From assembly GCF_003334785.1 (NCBI RefSeq), contig NZ_QOWV01000007.1: a stretch of DNA of 64,000 nucleotides; one strand, 5' to 3'. Below the pieces are notes generated by a model that saw only the letters and a program-made list of their open reading frames with translations, was not told the origin of the DNA and did not search any database. The position numbers and the translations under genes are program-made. The stretch comes from Escherichia coli. Lineage in GTDB: Bacteria; Pseudomonadota; Gammaproteobacteria; Enterobacterales; Enterobacteriaceae. This document shows, in pieces, positions 11,574 through 62,210 of this stretch (its first letter is position 1; each line of letters opens with the position of its first letter).

Positions 11574-12231
11574 ACTTAACTCCACTGTCACACTTAACTC
11601 CCTTTCCCTTATTGGAATGCAGAGAAATAATCCTGAAGAATATGATTTATCATGCATATAAAATAAGAAAAAGCAAAATGAGTAAAATTCGGAAAACATA
11701 AAGATACGGGTTCTGATAAAAACAGAATCCATTGCCGTGGAATGAGTCATTTACCACAGCATAATAATCCATAATGTTTTTGTTGCGAAAACAATCTAAT
11801 CATAACTACCGCGAATACTCAATCATCTACAAAATGGATTAAATGTGCTTATTTAATAATTAATTTATATATTTAATGCATTAATTCTTAACATTAATTG
11901 ATCAATAATATTCACCAAATCAATATCAAAAAAATCGCAAAAGATATAATTCAATACAAATCATCAGGATAGGTTTTGCAACGCGTGCATTTTGTCCCCT
12001 TTTTCCTCGTTGATTAGATGCAAAAATTTATGCTGAAATATGTCAACCGATGAAAAGCGTCGGTAGTTAAGCAGAAATTAATATCGCTTACTTTAACCAC
12101 CGCAGCACAATTAGCTAATTTTACGGATGCAGAACTCACGCTGGCGGGACGTTTTTATTGCGTCAGGGTTGACATCCGTTTTTGTATCCAGTAACTCTAA
12201 AAGCATATCGCATTCATCTGGAGCTGATTTA
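11574..12231. promoter_or_regulatory. AT-rich divergent leuO / leuLABCD control region
   Basis: 658 bp, strongly AT-rich (runs such as aataattaatttatatatttaatgcattaattcttaacattaattg); candidate leu promoter -35 TTGACA at about 12169-12174, about 58 nt upstream of leuL ATG. Confidence 0.7.
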
Positions 12232-12318
12232 ATGACTCACATCGTTCGCTTTATCGGTCTACTACTACTAAACGCATCTTCTTTGCGCGGTAGACGAGTG
12301 AGCGGCATCCAGCATTAA
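12232..12318 (+). CDS. leuL: leu operon leader peptide LeuL
   Basis: 28-codon [31 protein letters not shown] with four consecutive Leu codons, immediately followed by terminator hairpin. Confidence 0.92.
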
Positions 12319-12337
12319 GCCAGCACGCAGTCAAACA

Positions 12338-12368
12338 AAAAACCCGCGCCATTGCGCGGGTTTTTTTA
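12338..12368 (+). terminator. leu attenuator (rho-independent terminator)
   Basis: cccgcgcc-attg-cgcggg stem (about 12343-12360) followed by T7 run (12361-12367), 43 nt upstream of leuA ATG. Confidence 0.9.
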
Positions 12369-18346: not shown

Positions 18347-18573
18347 AAAAAAAACCAGCAGGTATAATCTGCTGGCGGGTGATTTTACACCAATACTCAG
18401 TCACACATGATGCAGGCAAGTCAACTTTCAGAATTGCGGTCATCCCACTGCATCAGTCCTTCAAGCATGGTTAATCGTTGTGGGACGCTTAACCAACGCA
18501 ACCAGCACAACTTCGCTGTCGCGGTAAAATAGTGCTGGTAAAACTGACGCATGGGGCACCCCCTTGCTTCATC
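18347..18573 (-). ncRNA. sgrS: Small RNA SgrS (glucose-phosphate stress), about 227 nt
   Basis: 5' end GATGAAGCAAGGGGGTGCCCCATG (plus-strand complement at about 18550-18573); 3' end is hairpin ccagcaggtataatctgctgg plus U8 (plus A-run 18347-18354); contains sgrT ORF; divergent from sgrR. Confidence 0.9.
18421..18552 (-). CDS. sgrT: SgrT, 43-aa peptide encoded within SgrS
   Basis: ORF MRQFYQHYFTATAKLCWLRWLSVPQRLTMLEGLMQWDDRNSES, ATG at 18552 preceded by GGGGG; track ORF 18421..18720 is an upstream extension. Confidence 0.85.
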   Translation of the reverse strand: MRQFYQHYFTATAKLCWLRWLSVPQRLTMLEGLMQWDDRNSES

Positions 18574-20329: not shown

Positions 20330-20450
20330 CCGTTCTCAACGGGGTGCCACGCGTACGCGTGCGCTGAGAAAATACCCGTCGAACCTGATCCGGATAACGC
20401 CGGCGAAGGGATTTGAGGCTCCTTCTCAAGTCCTTTGCCACTCTTTTTTG
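20330..20450 (+). ncRNA. sroA: TPP riboswitch (THI element; SroA region) in thiBPQ leader
   Basis: THI-box core ctgagaaaatacccgtcgaacctgatccggataacgccggcgaaggga at about 20364-20410, directly upstream of thiB start. Confidence 0.88.
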
Positions 20451-25553: not shown

Positions 25554-27592
<2,039 letters not shown>

Positions 27593-27602
27593 GGACACGA
27601 TA

Positions 27603-29105
27603 ATGACGATTTTTGATAATTATGAAGTGTGGTTTGTCATTGGCAGCCAGCATCTGTATGGCCCGGAAACCCTGCGTCAGGTCACCCAACATGCCGAGCA
27701 CGTCGTTAATGCGCTGAATACGGAAGCGAAACTGCCCTGCAAACTGGTGTTGAAACCGCTGGGCACCACGCCGGATGAAATCACCGCTATTTGCCGCGAC
27801 GCGAATTACGACGATCGTTGCGCTGGTCTGGTGGTGTGGCTGCACACCTTCTCCCCGGCCAAAATGTGGATCAACGGCCTGACCATGCTCAACAAACCGT
27901 TGCTGCAATTCCACACCCAGTTCAACGCGGCGCTGCCGTGGGACAGTATCGATATGGACTTTATGAACCTGAACCAGACTGCACATGGCGGTCGCGAGTT
28001 CGGCTTCATTGGCGCGCGTATGCGTCAGCAACATGCCGTGGTTACCGGTCACTGGCAGGATAAACAAGCCCATGAGCGTATCGGCTCCTGGATGCGTCAG
28101 GCGGTCTCTAAACAGGATACCCGTCATCTGAAAGTCTGCCGATTTGGCGATAACATGCGTGAAGTGGCGGTCACCGATGGCGATAAAGTTGCCGCACAGA
28201 TCAAGTTCGGTTTCTCCGTCAATACCTGGGCGGTTGGCGATCTGGTGCAGGTGGTGAACTCCATCAGCGACGGCGATGTTAACGCGCTGGTCGATGAGTA
28301 CGAAAGCTGCTACACCATGACGCCTGCCACACAAATCCACGGCAAAAAACGACAGAACGTGCTGGAAGCGGCGCGTATTGAGCTGGGGATGAAGCGTTTC
28401 CTGGAACAAGGTGGCTTCCACGCGTTCACCACCACCTTTGAAGATTTGCACGGTCTGAAACAGCTTCCTGGTCTGGCCGTACAGCGTCTGATGCAGCAGG
28501 GTTACGGCTTTGCGGGCGAAGGCGACTGGAAAACTGCCGCCCTGCTTCGCATCATGAAGGTGATGTCAACCGGTCTGCAGGGCGGCACCTCCTTTATGGA
28601 GGACTACACCTATCACTTCGAGAAAGGTAATGACCTGGTGCTCGGCTCCCATATGCTGGAAGTCTGCCCGTCGATCGCCGCAGAAGAGAAACCGATCCTC
28701 GACGTTCAGCATCTCGGTATTGGTGGTAAGGACGATCCTGCCCGCCTGATCTTCAATACCCAAACCGGCCCAGCGATTGTCGCCAGCTTGATTGATCTCG
28801 GCGATCGTTACCGTCTACTGGTTAACTGCATCGACACGGTGAAAACACCGCACTCCCTGCCGAAACTGCCGGTGGCGAATGCGCTGTGGAAAGCGCAACC
28901 GGATCTGCCAACTGCTTCCGAAGCGTGGATCCTCGCTGGTGGCGCGCACCATACCGTCTTCAGCCATGCACTGAACCTCAACGATATGCGCCAATTCGCC
29001 GAGATGCACGACATTGAAATCACGGTGATTGATAACGACACACGCCTGCCAGCGTTTAAAGACGCGCTGCGCTGGAACGAAGTGTATTACGGGTTTCGTC
29101 GCTAA
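27603..29105 (+). CDS. araA: L-arabinose isomerase AraA
   Basis: Start [20 protein letters not shown] at 27603 (track ORF begins 24 nt upstream); 500 codons. Confidence 0.96.
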
Positions 29106-29110
29106 GTAGC

Positions 29111-29545
29111 CGCATCCGGTATGTAACGCCTGATGCGACGCTGACGCGTCTTATCTGGCCTACACGCTGCGATTTTGTAGGCCGGATAAGCAAAGCGCAT
29201 CCGGCATTCAACGCCTGATGCGACGCTGGCGCGTCTTATCAGGCCTACGCGCTGCGATTTTGTAGGCCGGATAAGCAAAGCGCATCCGGCATTCAACGCC
29301 TGATGCGACGCTGGCGCGTCTTATCAGGCCTACGCGCTGCGATTTTGTAGGCCGGATAAGCAAAGCGCATCCGGCATTCAACGCCTGATGCGACGCTGGC
29401 GCGTCTTATCAGGCCTACGCGCTGCGATTTTGTAGGCCGGATAAGCAAAGCGCATCCGGCATTCAACGCCTGATGCGACGCTGGCGCGTCTTATCAGGCC
29501 TACACGCTGCGATTTTGTAGGCCGGATAAGCAAAGCGCATCCGGC
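29111..29545. repeat. Tandem array of five 85-bp BIME units (each two inverted REPs) plus a partial sixth
   Basis: Unit cgcatccggcattcaacgcctgatgcgacgctggcgcgtcttatcaggcctacgcgctgcgattttgtaggccggataagcaaag recurs at 29111, 29196, 29281, 29366, 29451 (exact 85-bp period), partial copy at 29536; units 2-4 identical, units 1 and 5 differ by a few bases. Confidence 0.9.
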
Positions 29546-29559
29546 ACGAAGGAGTCAAC

Positions 29560-51995: not shown

Positions 51996-52937
51996 TCAAC
52001 GCGCTAAAGCTGCGGTCAGCGCCGGAAGGATCTTCACGGCGTCGCCAACAATGCCGTAATCCGCGTACTGGAAGATCGGCGCATTTTTATCTTTATTGAT
52101 GGCGAAAATGGTTTGCGACGCGTTAGCGCCAACCATGTGCTGGATCTGCCCGGAGATCCCCACCGCCAAGTACAGTTCAGGTTTCAGCATCAGGTTGGAG
52201 ATACCGACATAGCGTTCGTGCTCCATCCATTTTTCGTTTTCCGCCACCGGACGAGAACAGGCCAACTCCGCACCTATCGCCTTGCAAAGCTGTTCTGCCA
52301 GCGCAATGTTCTCTTTGCTGCCAATACCGCGACCGACGCTGACCACCAGACGGGCTTTGTCGAGATCGACGCTGTTGCTCTGGCGCGCCTGGGTTGCCGT
52401 GCGGGTAATCGCCACAGCCGGAGCCTGCCACTCCACGGTGTGCGTTTCGCCAGTGCGTGACGCGTCTGGCTGAGCCGCATCGAACGTGCCGCTGCTGATG
52501 GTCAGTACCGCATACGGCGTGGCAATGCGTTCTTCGCCAATCGCCAGACCACCGTAAACCATGTGTTTCACTGTCGCTTTACCGTCCTGTACGCTGACGG
52601 TGCTGGCATCGTTAGACACCGCCGCTTTAAGGCGATAACCCAGTTTTGCCGCCAGTAATTTGCCGCGACGGGTGTTTGGCAGCAGCACCAGGCCGTCTGC
52701 GCCGTGCTGGCGAATAGTGTCAGCCATGACACCGGCGTAATCTTCGATCATCCGATCGTCCGGTTTGCCGTTTAATTTCCAGACATGATTAGCGCCGAGC
52801 TGGATTGCCTGTGCGCCGTCGGCATCATTGAGGACAAAGGTGTTGATTTGATTAGCTAAAGCCTGCGCACCGTTCATCAGTTCCGGCAGACGAGAAGGGG
52901 TATCGCTGAATACCCAGACTTGAGAAAACGTGTTCAT
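51996..52937 (-). CDS. fixB: Electron transfer flavoprotein alpha subunit FixB
   Basis: 313-aa ETF-alpha-like ORF. Confidence 0.94.
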
Positions 52938-52951
52938 AGCATCCCCTGTAA

Positions 52952-53722
52952 TTAAATGACTTTGCGAAGATTTTCAGCAAATGCGGCGATCTGTTCTTCG
53001 CCGTCGCCTTCAATCACGATGCGCTGACGTTCGCGCTGTTTCGGCGCGGCAACCTGTTGTTCTGACCAGGCTGCCTCTGCGTTAAAACCAATATCCGCCG
53101 CCGACCATACCTGGACGGGCTTTTTCGCCGCGCCGAGAATGGCTTTCATCGAAGGAATTTGTGGGGAATTGATATCAGTGGAAACAGCAACAACCGCAGG
53201 CAGCGGAATGCTTAAGGTTTCGGTTTCATCTTCCAGTTCGCGCTCAACGGTGAGGGTATCTGCAGTCAGGGAGATAATTTTGCTGACGCCGTTAACTGCC
53301 GGAATATTGAGGATTTCGCCTACCAGCAAACCAACCTGCTGGGCATAAAGGTCGGAAGAACCATCGCCACAGAGGATCAAATCAAAGCCTGCTTTCTGGG
53401 CGGCTGCAGCCAGTGCGCTCGCCGTTTGTTGCGGCAGTGCCTGCTCGAACTGGTCATCAATTACCACAATCAGTTCATCCGGGCCGCGCGATAACACATC
53501 TTTACGCCCTTTGGCGTTGGTCAGGGCTTTACCGCCCACACTTAAGGCTGTCACCTGCGCCTCTGCTGCCTGTTGCTTTAGCTGGCAAGCCGCTTCAATA
53601 GCGTTGAGATCGTATTGGCTTATTTTGGCATCGGCTTTGCTGAAGTCTAATGAACCATCAGCATTATTGACCGCAATATCCTGTTCATCAGGCACGCACT
53701 TATAGCAAGTAATAATCTTCAT
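52952..53722 (-). CDS. fixA: Electron transfer flavoprotein beta subunit FixA
   Basis: Start [15 protein letters not shown] at 53722 (track ORF extended upstream); 256 codons. Confidence 0.94.
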
Positions 53723-53814
53723 TGCATCTCCAGAAATCATGAAGGAAACGTCGTTCATATCGGTGGTGTTAATTACAGATATCACGCCCTTTAATTTGGA
53801 AATAAAACTTTAAT

Positions 53815-53944
53815 CACCAATATTGAAAATGTCACACGCAGATAAATCCAACTTTCAATATTGTTAAGTTCCTCACCAATATTGAAAACACGGCGTAGCA
53901 AAAAGAAATTTTCAATATTGTTTTATGGATCACCAATATTGAAA
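53815..53944. promoter_or_regulatory. Five copies of a CAATATTG-centred motif in the fix/cai divergent promoter region (likely CaiF operator half-sites)
   Basis: caccaatattgaaa at about 53815, 53874, 53931 and tttcaatattg at about 53853, 53910; two inverted pairs at about 21-bp centre spacing plus one lone copy. Confidence 0.7.
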
Positions 53945-54191
53945 GTCAGATGTTATTTTTTTACTCAAAATAGAGCATAACAAACTGATTATTAATCAAA
54001 ATTAACGAAAAAACGCCCTCTATTCACCCGAAACAAAAATGTGATACCAATCACAGAATACAGCTTATTGAATACCCATTATGAGTTAGCCATTAACGCG
54101 TCCACGAGGTTAATAATAATTATATTAAATGTTAACAAAAATAAAACAAACGGGAACGCAAAATAAATATTCGTTTTCACAGTGGAATTAA

Positions 54192-55709
<1,518 letters not shown>

Positions 55710-55739
55710 TTAACCCCCAAAATATCAAGAGGTTGAAAG

Positions 55740-56882
55740 ATGGATTTTAATTTAAATGATGAGCAGGAACTGTTTGTCGCCGGTATCCGCGAACTGATGG
55801 CCAGCGAAAACTGGGAGGCCTATTTTGCCGAGTGCGACCGTGACAGCGTCTACCCGGAACGTTTTGTCAAAGCACTGGCGGATATGGGTATCGACAGTCT
55901 GCTGATCCCTGAAGAGCACGGTGGTCTGGACGCGGGGTTTGTTACTCTCGCCGCCGTGTGGATGGAGCTGGGACGTCTGGGGGCACCAACCTATGTACTG
56001 TACCAGTTGCCGGGCGGGTTCAATACCTTCCTGCGCGAAGGCACACAAGAGCAGATCGACAAGATTATGGCTTTCCGCGGCACCGGTAAGCAGATGTGGA
56101 ACTCAGCGATTACCGAACCGGGCGCGGGCTCCGACGTGGGTAGCCTGAAAACGACTTATACCCGTAGAAATGGTAAGATTTATCTTAATGGTAGTAAGTG
56201 TTTTATTACCAGTAGCGCCTACACCCCGTACATCGTGGTGATGGCGCGCGACGGGGCTTCTCCGGACAAACCTGTCTACACCGAATGGTTTGTTGATATG
56301 AGCAAACCGGGCATCAAAGTGACCAAACTTGAGAAGCTCGGTCTGCGTATGGATAGCTGCTGTGAAATCACCTTTGACGATGTGGAACTGGACGAGAAAG
56401 ACATGTTCGGTCGGGAAGGTAACGGCTTTAACCGCGTCAAAGAAGAGTTCGACCATGAACGTTTCCTGGTAGCCCTGACCAACTACGGTACGGCGATGTG
56501 CGCCTTTGAAGATGCGGCGCGCTACGCCAACCAGCGCGTGCAGTTTGGCGAGGCTATTGGTCGTTTCCAGTTGATTCAGGAAAAATTCGCCCACATGGCG
56601 ATCAAATTAAACTCCATGAAAAACATGCTGTATGAAGCAGCGTGGAAAGCAGACAACGGCACCATCACCTCTGGCGATGCAGCGATGTGCAAATACTTCT
56701 GCGCCAATGCGGCATTTGAAGTGGTGGATAGCGCAATGCAGGTGCTGGGCGGTGTCGGGATTGCGGGCAACCACCGCATCAGCCGCTTCTGGCGTGACCT
56801 GCGTGTAGACCGCGTTTCCGGAGGATCTGACGAAATGCAGATCCTGACGCTGGGTCGTGCGGTGCTGAAGCAATACCGCTAA
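55740..56882 (+). CDS. caiA: Crotonobetainyl-CoA dehydrogenase CaiA
   Basis: 380-aa acyl-CoA dehydrogenase-fold ORF. Confidence 0.95.
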
Positions 56883-56893
56883 GTCCGTGCGCT

Positions 56894-56975
<82 letters not shown>

Positions 56976-56992
56976 AGTCATGCGCTACATAA

Positions 56993-58228
<1,236 letters not shown>

Positions 58229-58301
58229 ACGCGTGGCGTCAGTCGGCTTGCCTGACTAGCGCCCGCCCAATAACAAACGAACAAAAATGGATAGAGGTGC
58301 A

Positions 58302-59855
58302 ATGGATATCATTGGCGGACAACATCTACGTCAAATGTGGGACGATCTTGCGGACGTTTACGGTCATAAAACGGCGCTGATTTGTGAATCCAGCGGCGGA
58401 GTCGTTAACCGGTATAGTTATCTTGAGTTAAATCAGGAGATTAACCGCACGGCAAACCTGTTTTATACGCTGGGGATTCGCAAAGGCGACAAGGTTGCAC
58501 TACATCTCGACAACTGCCCGGAATTTATCTTTTGCTGGTTCGGGCTGGCAAAAATTGGCGCGATTATGGTGCCGATTAACGCCCGCCTGTTACGCGAGGA
58601 AAGCGCGTGGATCCTGCAAAATAGCCAGGCGTGCCTGCTGGTAACCAGTGCGCAATTCTATCCTATGTATCAACAGATTCAGCAGGAAGATGCCACTCAA
58701 TTGCGGCACATTTGCCTGACAGATGTGGCACTTCCCGCTGATGATGGCGTGAGTTCGTTTACTCAACTGAAAAATCAACAACCTGCCACCTTGTGCTATG
58801 CACCGCCGCTATCGACTGACGATACGGCGGAAATTCTCTTCACCTCCGGCACCACCTCCCGACCGAAAGGTGTGGTGATTACCCATTACAACCTGCGCTT
58901 CGCTGGATATTACTCCGCCTGGCAGTGTGCACTGCGTGACGATGACGTCTACCTGACGGTAATGCCTGCGTTTCATATCGATTGCCAGTGTACTGCGGCG
59001 ATGGCGGCGTTTTCTGCCGGGGCCACCTTTGTGCTGGTCGAGAAATACAGCGCCCGCGCCTTCTGGGGACAGGTACAGAAGTACCGCGCCACCGTTACCG
59101 AATGTATTCCGATGATGATCCGTACCTTGATGGTGCAGCCGCCTTCAGCGAACGATCGGCAACACCGCCTGCGGGAAGTGATGTTTTATCTCAACTTGTC
59201 GGAGCAGGAAAAAGATGCGTTTTGTGAACGCTTCGGCGTTCGCTTGCTGACGTCTTATGGGATGACGGAAACCATTGTGGGCATTATCGGCGATCGCCCT
59301 GGCGATAAACGACGCTGGCCGTCGATTGGTCGAGCGGGGTTTTGCTACGAAGCGGAGATCCGCGACGATCACAATTGCCCGCTCCCGGCAGGTGAGATCG
59401 GTGAAATCTGTATTAAAGGCGTACCAGGGAAAACCATCTTCAAAGAGTATTTTCTCAACCCGAAAGCCACTGCGAAAGTGCTGGAAGCTGATGGCTGGCT
59501 GCATACCGGCGATACCGGATACCGCGACGAAGAAGGCTTTTTTTATTTCGTCGATCGCCGCTGCAATATGATCAAACGCGGTGGCGAGAATGTCTCCTGC
59601 GTGGAGCTGGAAAATATCATCGCCACCCATCCGAAAATTCAGGACATCGTGGTTGTGGGTATTAAAGATTCGATTCGCGATGAAGCCATCAAAGCATTTG
59701 TGGTGCTGAATGAAGGTGAAACATTGAGCGAAGAGGAATTTTTTCGCTTCTGCGAACAAAATATGGCGAAATTTAAAGTGCCCTCTTATCTGGAGATCAG
59801 AAAAGATCTGCCACGTAATTGCTCGGGGAAAATAATTAGAAAGAATCTGAAATAA
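58302..59855 (+). CDS. caiC: Carnitine/crotonobetaine--CoA ligase CaiC
   Basis: Start [15 protein letters not shown] at 58302; 517 codons; AMP-binding motif [10 protein letters not shown]. Confidence 0.94.
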
Positions 59856-59963
59856 ATGAAACGGCAGGGAACTACCCTGCCAGCTAATAATCACGCTCTA
59901 AAACAATATGCATTTTTTGCAGGAATGTTGTCGTCCCTGAAAAAGCAAAAATGGAGAAAAGGA

Positions 59964-60749
59964 ATGAGTGAATCATTACATCTGACCCGCAATGGATCAA
60001 TTCTGGAAATTACCCTTGATCGCCCAAAAGCGAATGCTATTGATGCAAAAACCAGCTTTGAAATGGGCGAAGTATTTCTAAATTTCCGTGACGATCCGCA
60101 ATTACGTGTCGCCATTATTACCGGTGCCGGAGAGAAATTCTTTTCCGCGGGCTGGGATTTAAAAGCGGCAGCAGAAGGCGAAGCACCGGATGCTGACTTT
60201 GGCCCGGGTGGTTTTGCGGGATTAACCGAAATTTTCAATCTCGACAAACCAGTTATCGCAGCTGTGAACGGCTACGCCTTTGGCGGCGGTTTCGAACTGG
60301 CGCTGGCGGCAGATTTTATTGTTTGTGCCGATAACGCCAGCTTCGCCCTGCCGGAAGCCAAACTGGGCATCGTTCCTGACAGCGGCGGTGTGCTGCGTCT
60401 GCCGAAGATCCTGCCGCCTGCCATCGTCAATGAAATGGTGATGACCGGCAGACGAATGGGCGCAGAAGAGGCGCTGCGTTGGGGGATAGTCAACCGCGTG
60501 GTTAGCCAGGCGGAACTGATGGATAACGCCCGCGAACTGGCGCAGCAGCTGGTTAACAGCGCTCCGCTGGCGATTGCGGCGCTGAAAGAGATCTACCGCA
60601 CCACCAGCGAAATGCCGGTAGAAGAAGCGTATCGCTATATTCGCAGCGGCGTGTTGAAACACTATCCGTCGGTTCTGCATTCGGAGGATGCCATTGAAGG
60701 GCCGCTGGCGTTTGCCGAGAAGCGCGATCCGGTGTGGAAAGGACGTTAA
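59964..60749 (+). CDS. caiD: Carnitinyl-CoA dehydratase CaiD (crotonase family)
   Basis: Start [18 protein letters not shown] at 59964 (track ORF extended 108 nt upstream); 261 codons. Confidence 0.92.
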
Positions 60750-60754
60750 CAACC

Positions 60755-61345
60755 GTGAGCTATTACGCCTTTGAGGGGTTAATTCCGGTGGTTCACCCGA
60801 CGGCGTTTGTCCATCCCAGTGCCGTCTTGATTGGCGATGTGATTGTGGGAGCCGGTGTCTACATCGGCCCACTCGCCTCACTGCGTGGTGACTACGGGCG
60901 GTTGATCGTGCAAGCGGGAGCCAATATTCAGGATGGCTGCATTATGCATGGCTACTGCGACACTGACACCATTGTTGGGGAAAACGGCCATATCGGGCAC
61001 GGAGCGATCCTGCATGGTTGTGTGATTGGTCGCGATGCATTGGTCGGGATGAACAGCGTGATTATGGATGGCGCGGTCATTGGCGAAGAGAGCATTGTTG
61101 CCGCCATGAGCTTTGTCAAAGCGGGCTTTAGCGGCGAGAAACGCCAGTTGTTGATGGGTACGCCAGCCCGCGCTGTACGCAGTGTTAGTGACGACGAGTT
61201 ACACTGGAAACGGTTGAATACCAAAGAGTATCAGGATCTTGTCGGGCGCTATCATGCATCGTTACATGAAACGCAGCCGTTGAGGCAAATGGAGGAAAAT
61301 CGCCCCCGTTTGCAGGGGACAACGGATGTGACGCCTAAACGGTGA
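60755..61345 (+). CDS. caiE: Hexapeptide-repeat protein CaiE
   Basis: GTG at 60755 gives 196 codons; left-handed beta-helix repeats; start assignment tentative (track ORF starts at 60734). Confidence 0.88.
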
Positions 61346-61348
61346 TCT

Positions 61349-61528
61349 TGCCGGATGCGGCGTAAACGCCTTATCCAACTCTGCTGGAGAGCAACCGTAG
61401 GCCGGATAAGATGCGCCAGCATCGCATCCGGCGATAGCTGTCGGATGCGGCATAAACGCCTTATCCAACCCGGCTGGAGAGCAACCGTAAGCCGGATAAG
61501 ATGCGCCAGCATCGCATCCGGCGACCAG
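61349..61528. repeat. Two tandem ~90-bp BIME units (four REPs) between caiE and caiF
   Basis: ggatgcggc(g/a)taaacgccttatccaac ... gccggataagatgcgccagcatcgcatccggc repeated at about 61353 and 61443. Confidence 0.85.
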
Positions 61529-61553
61529 GTCGCACGGTATCATCGAAATGACA

Positions 61554-61949
61554 TTAACGACGCATACTCTTTGACAACATCATCTGCCACTTCTGCTCGC
61601 GGTTAAGTTCCGTGAGCGGAACGGCAGGAATACGCGGTGTCTTTCTTACGCCGACTAATTTTTCCCGACTGTTATTGCGCAGGCGCGCGTAAATTTGTTC
61701 ATCGATATCGACCACTTTAACCAGTCGCTGACACTGGCATCCCCGCCCTTCCAGCTTATTAGGGATCATCTTAACTTCGCAGCTTATTTCTGTGACTTCC
61801 GACAGAATATAAGTCAGGGTATTAACCGCCTTGCTGTGTTCAATATCGAAATGAATAGAGATCTCTCTTGCTATCACCCACCGATTTTCAGCCATCATCC
61901 ATTCGGCGATTAACAAGTAGAGTGGTTTTTCAACATATCCTTCACACAT
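61554..61949 (-). CDS. caiF: cai/fix operon transcriptional activator CaiF
   Basis: Start MCEGYVEKPLYLLIAEW at 61949; 131 codons; sits between the cai operon and carB. Confidence 0.88.
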   Translation of the reverse strand: MCEGYVEKPLYLLIAEWMMAENRWVIAREISIHFDIEHSKAVNTLTYILSEVTEISCEVKMIPNKLEGRGCQCQRLVKVVDIDEQIYARLRNNSREKLVGVRKTPRIPAVPLTELNREQKWQMMLSKSMRR

Positions 61950-62210
61950 ACGAACTCCAGTTTCACAAATTAAAAGTCTGGCTATGACTCGTTTTGAAGC
62001 AATTAAACAAGGCCATATTAAAATTGTGGATATATCGATAGTATGCAACTTCACCGTCGATAAGTGTGAGCTAAATCCTGCTTATGTCATCAAAAATATC
62101 GATTCCCCAAAAGATTTACTTAATGGGCAAAAAAAAACGGTCCTCATCAGAGAACCGTATTAGTTATTCGATCAAATTAGCGGATGAAAAATATCTGCCA
62201 TGACACGCTA

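Follow-up and report, generated by a model that had tools for sequence, protein, structure and literature searches.

The araA-araD spacer and its repeat array

We analysed a 64,000-nucleotide stretch of Escherichia coli DNA (hereafter the window) that carries araB, araA and araD, followed by polB, all on the plus strand and all assigned by NCBIfam equivalog models (Table 1). Tandem Repeats Finder places a single array in the spacer between araA and araD, at 29111-29546, with a period of 85 bp, 5.1 copies, 98% matches, no indels and a score of 823. A first-pass annotation of this DNA had described the spacer as 454 bp long and almost entirely made up of 85-bp tandem units, five in number, with units 2 to 4 identical. 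The gene boundaries and the Tandem Repeats Finder output bear out the first part of this description, and an in-register comparison of the units bears out the second. The partial sixth unit that it also described does exist, but amounts to only 11 nt which complete the last Z2 palindrome. The remnant of an inverted Z2 palindrome that follows the araA stop codon had been missed; it is common to every allele that we examined.

Table 1. Genes and repeat features around the araA-araD spacer (positions are those of the window)
Feature	Position	Strand	Description and basis
araB	25892-27592	+	NCBIfam equivalog, far above cut-off
araA, L-arabinose isomerase	27603-29105	+	NCBIfam NF002795 equivalog, 897.9 bits against a cut-off of 622; matching RefSeq records annotate araA
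araA stop codon, TAA	29103-29105	+	
araA-araD spacer	29106-29559		454 bp; from the araA end (29105) and the araD start (29560)
Inverted Z2 remnant, GTAGC-CGCATCCGGT	29106-29120	+	Internal deletion; direct reading, inverted repeat I18
Unit U1	29111-29195	+	85 bp; six differences from the consensus unit, in-register comparison
Units U2, U3, U4	29196-29450	+	Three identical 85-bp consensus units, in-register comparison
Unit U5	29451-29535	+	85 bp; one difference from the consensus, A for G at unit position 54 (G54A)
Terminal 11 nt	29536-29546	+	Finishes the last Z2 palindrome
Y palindromic unit 1, GCCTGATGCG...GGCCTAC	29128-29163	+	Consensus regular expression; inverted repeats I6-I9
Other Y units	29213-29248, 29298-29333, 29383-29418, 29468-29503	+	Consensus regular expression
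Inverted Z2 palindromic unit 1, GTAGGCCGGATAAGCAAAGCGCATCCGGC	29177-29205	+	Consensus regular expression
Other inverted Z2 units	29262-29290, 29347-29375, 29432-29460, 29517-29545	+	Consensus regular expression
araD Shine-Dalgarno, AAGGAG	29549-29554	+	Direct reading; 3 nt past the last Z2 hairpin, ATG at 29560
araD, L-ribulose-5-phosphate 4-epimerase	29560-30255	+	NCBIfam TIGR00760 equivalog, 449 bits against a cut-off of 389.1
polB	30330-32681	+	NCBIfam equivalog, far above cut-off

Each 85-bp unit consists of a Y unit (GCCTGATGCGACGCTGGCGCGTCTTATCAGGCCTAC, 36 nt), a 13-nt linker, an inverted Z2 unit (GTAGGCCGGATAAGCAAAGCGCATCCGGC, 29 nt) and a 7-nt linker, in agreement with the earlier reading of the array as a BIME with two inverted REP palindromes per unit. 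The 13-nt linker (GCGCTGCGATTTT) joins the tail of Y to the tail of Z2, and the 7-nt linker (ATTCAAC) joins the head of Z2 to the head of Y. Five Y and five Z2 palindromes give 10 full palindromes in the array of the window, plus the one remnant. Folded as RNA, the Y hairpin of a consensus unit (29213-29248) has a free energy of -21.4 kcal/mol and the Z2 hairpin (29262-29290) one of -12.9 kcal/mol, while the whole spacer RNA in araBAD sense reaches -231.8 kcal/mol (z = -8.5 against dinucleotide shuffles).

Pairing between the CGCATCCGG stretch of the Z2 remnant and the head of the first Y unit (29129-29137) could form a hairpin that begins 6 nt past the araA stop codon, and this hairpin-forming feature (29103-29137) is unchanged in every allele. 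Terminating ribosomes can reportedly be stalled by REP structures lying no more than about 15 nt from the stop codon (Liang et al. 2015).

The element in the spacer is a BIME-2, in which Y and inverted Z2 REP palindromes alternate along a tandem array that has the orientation of araBAD. We assign it to this class because the presence of Y and Z2 units, a short linker and multiple tandem copies match the published definition, in which z2 plus y units with a short linker occur in several tandem copies (PMC3333891, Ton-Hoang et al. 2012). The family was described in work by Gilson, Bachellier and Hofnung, as summarised in PMC3333891. The Y-type consensus GCC[G/T]GATGCG...CTTATC.GGCCTAC has five matches, with arms I6-I9, and the inverted 29-nt units, also five, are of the Z2 and not the Z1 type (Table 1). 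The 13-nt linker is of the short S type and has essentially no room for a full IHF site, in contrast to BIME-1, which has a long, IHF-binding L linker (PMC3333891). The units stand in tandem (5.1 copies at 98% identity, with alleles of one to five units across genomes), and the array lies wholly between the araA stop at 29105 and the araD start at 29560. Every unit carries the GTAG/CTAC motif needed by TnpA-REP, whose substrates require a GTAG tetranucleotide and CT cleavage sites (PMC3333891). BIME-2 elements are also bound and cleaved in vivo by DNA gyrase (Espeli and Boccard 1997, as cited in PMC3333891).

Neither the locus nor the kind of variation is new. The araD-araA BIME of MG1655 has served as a TnpA-REP test substrate, and variation in BIME-2 copy number between strains is explicit in PMC3333891, where Bachellier et al. 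1997 is cited for it. A literature search for REP elements with araBAD, or for araA-araD as a named locus, returned nothing specific, and it likewise found no use of the locus as a typing marker.

Spacer alleles in E. coli and other enterobacteria

In the MG1655 reference (NC_000913.3), araD (65855-66550) and araA (66835-68337) are separated by 284 bp, the length that the first-pass annotation had given for K-12 (about 284 bp, or three units). The spacers of MG1655, W3110 and DH1 are all 284 bp long with the composition U1-U2-U5, so that the reference is a three-unit and not a five-unit array. The window has the composition U1-U2-U2-U2-U5 and exceeds MG1655 by exactly 170 bp, as expected from the two additional units that had been proposed. 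The central unit is present three times in the window and once in K-12, and the extra copies may be any two of U2-U4. Both arrays are extragenic, lie between co-oriented genes, and share the tandem alternation of Y and inverted Z2, the short tail-to-tail linker and identical unit sequences; they differ in copy number alone (five against three), with the central unit triplicated in the window.

We compared the spacer across the 5,426 complete E. coli genomes in RefSeq, all of which had a match to the query. Alleles were counted in two systematic samples taken down the ranked match lists and in the top-ranked list; the forced top match and off-locus rows were removed, leaving 96 sampled loci. 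The extracted spacers form an allelic series in a single register of 114 bp (one unit; BY63), 199 bp (two units; EL361 and O157:H7 H6437), 284 bp (three units; MG1655 and UTI89), 369 bp (four units; GM4792, JX21CE35, XL1-Blue and FACU 2024) and 454 bp (five units; the window, Stbl4, XL10-Gold and a record labelled 'TOP10'), plus a 168-bp form in which one unit is followed by a G+C-rich boxC-like palindrome (H5 and TUM13936). The junction with the araD Shine-Dalgarno is identical across the one- to five-unit alleles. BY63 has as its only unit a hybrid of U1 and U5, which indicates that units are also lost.

Three units were found at 35 of the 96 sampled loci, one unit plus the boxC-like element at 29, two units at 20 and one unit at 11; one locus was rearranged. 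No four- or five-unit allele occurred among the 96 loci of the two systematic samples. Among the best 60 matches, three records contain the five-unit span and four contain a four-unit span, and every record at ranks 8-60 has three; the identity band of 99% or better comprises about 1,050 records. Alleles of more than three units are thus rare, with seven or more records and a share of less than about 3% of genomes, and the five-unit allele is already present in public genome records. The allele classes are phylogenetically structured, with two units in O157, for example, and three in UTI89 and Nissle. What we observe in the window is a rare length allele of an already known, naturally variable element, and is ordinary in kind.

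The 168-bp spacer, found in about 30% of the sampled E. coli, carries one BIME unit and then the palindrome CCCCTCGCCCC...GGGGAGAGGG...GGGGTGAGGGG, a putative boxC. In H5 and TUM13936, this form has an altered araD ribosome-binding region (CAGGAG). Elements similar to the boxC-like palindrome are present in the same spacer in Klebsiella, Kluyvera and one Enterobacter species.

In about 60 other enterobacterial species in which it could be measured, the araA-araD spacer is 47 to 232 bp long. We read and folded 14 of these spacers, and all 14 contain one stable G+C-rich hairpin, REP pair or boxC-like element. The 47-bp spacer of Enterobacter cloacae holds a minimal hairpin, those of Citrobacter and Salmonella (about 95-100 bp) hold a species-specific REP pair, those of Klebsiella and Kluyvera hold CCCTCTCCC/GGGAGAGGG-type elements, and E. 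albertii has the one-unit spacer of 114 bp. Among the species examined, E. coli alone had multi-unit arrays. Each spacer that was read holds one element, so that a structure of some kind is conserved at this position, whereas its identity and number are not.

The array also resembles the bacterial VNTR or minisatellite loci used in MLVA typing. As at those loci, the repeat is in register, single units are gained and lost, alleles of the same size recur in unrelated lineages, and changes occur within decades in laboratory lineages. Unlike an anonymous repeat, the ara unit is a structured palindrome that is recognised by a transposase.

Origin of the five-unit allele

Units 2-4 form an exact repeat of 255 bp, which is beyond typical short reads, and no complete RefSeq genome matches window positions 17000-41999 in one piece, and these two points speak for a miscount of the repeats. 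It is nevertheless very unlikely that the five-unit count is an assembly artefact and that the strain really has three or four units. Three other records carry the identical 454-bp allele, four carry the 369-bp intermediate, and the four-unit records, which include GM4792 and the non-K-12 FACU 2024, come from unrelated accession series. Mis-assembly of repeats usually collapses copies and seldom adds exact, in-register ones. The four cloning-strain assemblies behind the laboratory series (CP080620 and CP081007-9) have adjacent accession numbers, probably belong to one project, and are perhaps not fully independent of each other.

We considered whether the window comes from a K-12 cloning strain and rejected this, as it differs from MG1655, Stbl4, W3110 and DH1 at SNPs that those four share. 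The same identity is ruled out by the yabP indel and by the divergent cai region: the window is almost identical to MG1655 near ara, falls to 98.2% identity in the cai region, and retains 15 bp in yabP that are absent from K-12. The nearest complete genome, LR-64-2 (from human faeces), has three units.

Within the K-12 laboratory strains, a marker SNP at window position 36142 and the rluA allele WP_000525169.1 link DH1, XL1-Blue, XL10-Gold, Stbl4 and the 'TOP10' record. Along this lineage the array has the composition U1-U2-U5 in DH1, U1-U2-U2-U5 in XL1-Blue, and U1-U2-U2-U2-U5 in XL10-Gold and Stbl4. We take the DH1/XL1-Blue/XL10-Gold/Stbl4 lineage to be recA1, and the series from three to four to five units to have arisen within a few decades in the laboratory. 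A four-unit array is also present in a further background, that of the sewage isolate FACU 2024, whose thiBQ and araB alleles are divergent.

The five-unit allele could in principle have been produced by a single slip of two units (170 bp). We rejected this route, as the U5/U1 hybrid that it would create has A at position 54 but the three middle units all have G there, and as a four-unit intermediate exists. The five-unit allele was therefore reached one unit at a time. This happened on two or more separate occasions, since the window does not belong to K-12 and must have acquired its allele separately from the K-12 laboratory strains. The window allele descends from the common three-unit allele U1-U2-U5 through two successive one-unit duplications of the central unit.

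Such gains are VNTR-like, in-register events between 85-bp direct repeats, with replication slippage or unequal sister-strand exchange as the most likely route. Both processes act between direct repeats independently of RecA. The extra units might instead have been added by TnpA-REP, the REP-associated tyrosine transposase (yafM in K-12), through cutting of single-stranded BIME DNA and strand transfer. Oligonucleotides of the MG1655 araD-A BIME (B315/B316) are cleaved in vitro by TnpA-REP at iREP plus linker sites, the recombination products of this BIME carry an additional REP, and model B of Ton-Hoang et al. adds one BIME unit per event (PMC3333891), which the one-unit steps in recA1 strains would fit. 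The support for this route comes from in vitro work, however, and RecA-independent slippage would yield the very same products from 85-bp direct repeats lying so close together. The contractions (the one- and two-unit alleles and the U1/U5 hybrid of BY63) are likewise expected from slippage, and a mobilome study found no circular BIME intermediates (10.1101/2024.07.17.603846). A contribution of TnpA-REP is possible but doubtful, and we favour replication slippage as the most likely default.

In the 'TOP10' record (NZ_CP080620.1), the araC-araBAD-polB-rapA region is intact and rluA is the allele of the DH1 lineage. DH10B (NC_010473.1), by contrast, lacks araBAD and has a rapA'-'cra fusion (the ara-leu deletion). 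The Sanger-sequenced DH10B genome was considered as independent support for the five-unit allele of the 'TOP10' record, and this failed as DH10B has no araBAD. The 'TOP10' record is probably mislabelled or not a DH10B-type strain.

Other parts of the window also differ from K-12. The caiE-caiF intergenic region (61350-61525) contains two tandem REP pairs of about 89 bp and an Rfam naRNA4 match on the minus strand (61400-61470, 70.7 bits), where MG1655 has only a short, degenerate remnant (34696-34780); this is a second BIME presence or copy-number polymorphism in the window. In the yabP region (36971-37072), stretches of 15 bp and 1 bp are absent from K-12 strains, which fits the known yabP/yabQ split of K-12 as a K-12-specific lesion. 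Divergence from MG1655 is 1-2% across the fix/cai region (52000-64000) as against about one SNP per 5 kb around ara, which suggests that a recombination boundary between K-12-like and non-K-12 ancestry lies inside the window. The RNA elements expected of the K-12 region were found at their gathering scores and are ordinary: SgrS (18347-18573, minus strand), the leu operon leader (12218-12367, plus strand) and the thiB TPP riboswitch (20330-20429, plus strand).

Possible role of the array in the araBAD transcript

The array is on the same strand as araBAD. We found no promoter-like site or intrinsic terminator in or beside it, and the sole terminator-like site lies past araD, near 30300, on the minus strand. 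Because the array is co-oriented with the operon and lacks such sites, its sequence context fits a position within the araBAD transcript. No Rho-loading signature (a C-rich, G-poor stretch) was found in the spacer, in which C/G is 1.0 throughout. If transcribed, the array would form a row of stable hairpins that would block 3'-to-5' decay of the araBA segment of the mRNA and partly attenuate transcription into araD.

Intercistronic REP elements in malE-malF and hisJ-hisQ were reportedly identified as mRNA stabilisers by Newbury, Higgins and colleagues in 1987. In these systems, REP hairpins in a polycistronic mRNA guard the upstream segment from 3'-exonucleases and give unequal expression of the cistrons, as could be the case here; they differ in consisting of one or two palindromes, whereas the ara array has ten and varies in length between strains.

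The best experimental parallel is REP325 (naRNA4), which is similar in size and is also a REP-pair array between co-transcribed genes (Qian et al. 2015, PMC4550694; Harris et al. 2026, 10.64898/2026.03.23.713779). The order of the palindromes and their orientation relative to the mRNA are the same, and REP325 has 12 hairpins where the ara array has 10. REP325 differs in being built of Y and Z1 with a 100-bp period and about 75% identity to the ara array; it has the 34-nt Z1 form and gives no match to the Z2 pattern. Its effect on expression has been measured. When REP325, which lies between yjdM and yjdN, is deleted, the yjdM/yjdN RNA ratio of about 35 falls to about 1, and the array gives a hairpin-spaced ladder of transcripts, stabilising the upstream mRNA and acting as a partial terminator (10.64898/2026.03.23.713779). 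Partial Rho-dependence was seen only with the full 12-hairpin array, and not with fragments of 2-4 hairpins (10.64898/2026.03.23.713779). Genome-wide, adjacent same-strand gene pairs that are split by REP elements show upstream-biased expression. REP effects depend on context, a point stressed in 10.64898/2026.03.23.713779.

Taken together, the conservation of a structure in this spacer, the behaviour of REP325 and the genome-wide REP bias suggest that the array is probably a decay barrier for araBA and a partial attenuator before araD. By analogy with REP325, a tuning of the araA:araD ratio by copy number is plausible. Unit number is probably close to neutral, and any quantitative effect on araD should be modest at most. 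A strong effect is disfavoured by the identical junctions of the one- to five-unit alleles, by the lack of a C-rich, G-poor tract in the array, and by the clustering of expansions in laboratory strains.

A stronger proposal is that copy number is an adaptive dial, in which more units give stronger attenuation and less AraD relative to AraB and AraA, and lineages have been selected for particular settings. The Rho-dependent termination of REP325 only as a full array, the upstream-biased expression of REP-separated same-strand gene pairs across the genome, and the phylogenetic structure of the unit-number classes (two in O157, three in UTI89 and Nissle) all point in this direction. Neutrality with a low mutation rate would, however, produce such phylogenetic structure just as well, and the expansions to four and five units are concentrated in laboratory cloning strains never selected on arabinose, a pattern that resembles drift. 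All one- to five-unit alleles have the same junctions with the araA stop codon and with the araD ribosome-binding site, and a reduction in AraD is expected to be harmful on arabinose, as established knowledge of araD mutants holds L-ribulose-5-phosphate to be toxic. We therefore regard selection for particular copy numbers as unlikely. Quite unlikely, too, is the more specific possibility that the araA-araD BIME-2 is a fast-mutating, RecA-independent length switch that changes within decades even in recA1 laboratory strains, in which unit number would set how much transcription reaches araD, toxicity of L-ribulose-5-phosphate would hold natural strains at three units or fewer, and strains unexposed to arabinose would drift upward.

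The array could also be read as a source of RNAs like naRNA4, a processed nucleoid-associated RNA of about 77 nt that is held to bind HU and, with it, to condense the nucleoid. Rfam RF02564 (naRNA4) has four sense-strand matches, one at each Z2-Y junction, which pass marginally at 60.2 bits against a gathering score of 59.5. This family is in effect a REP-pair model derived from another REP array, and the ara array scores only at its threshold. According to 10.64898/2026.03.23.713779, deletion or overexpression of REP325/naRNA4 left nucleoid volume unchanged and REP-REP contacts were not seen. Transcription of araBAD takes place only when arabinose is present. With matches at threshold only, and with the function disputed in that preprint, we rejected the nucleoid reading as extremely unlikely.

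Overall, we consider it likely that the spacer holds an expanded BIME-2 allele that arose by slippage-type gains, that by analogy would act in the mRNA as a row of hairpins, and whose number of units is nearly neutral. On its own, the five-unit allele is of little consequence: it adds one more length variant to a repeat family known since the 1990s to be polymorphic in copy number, at a locus that has already served in experiments. The progression from DH1 to XL1-Blue to XL10-Gold and Stbl4 indicates that, in recA1 strains, BIME arrays can grow fast enough for the gain of units to be seen over laboratory time. This DH1-lineage series offers a natural calibration point and makes the locus a convenient one for the study of BIME instability and of the proposed role of TnpA-REP. 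The natural one- to five-unit alleles, with their identical junctions, are a ready set for studying how the number of hairpins affects attenuation and mRNA stability, a question raised by the work on REP325. If the array did prove to be a length switch, BIME copy number would be a heritable, reversible regulator of stoichiometry within an operon.
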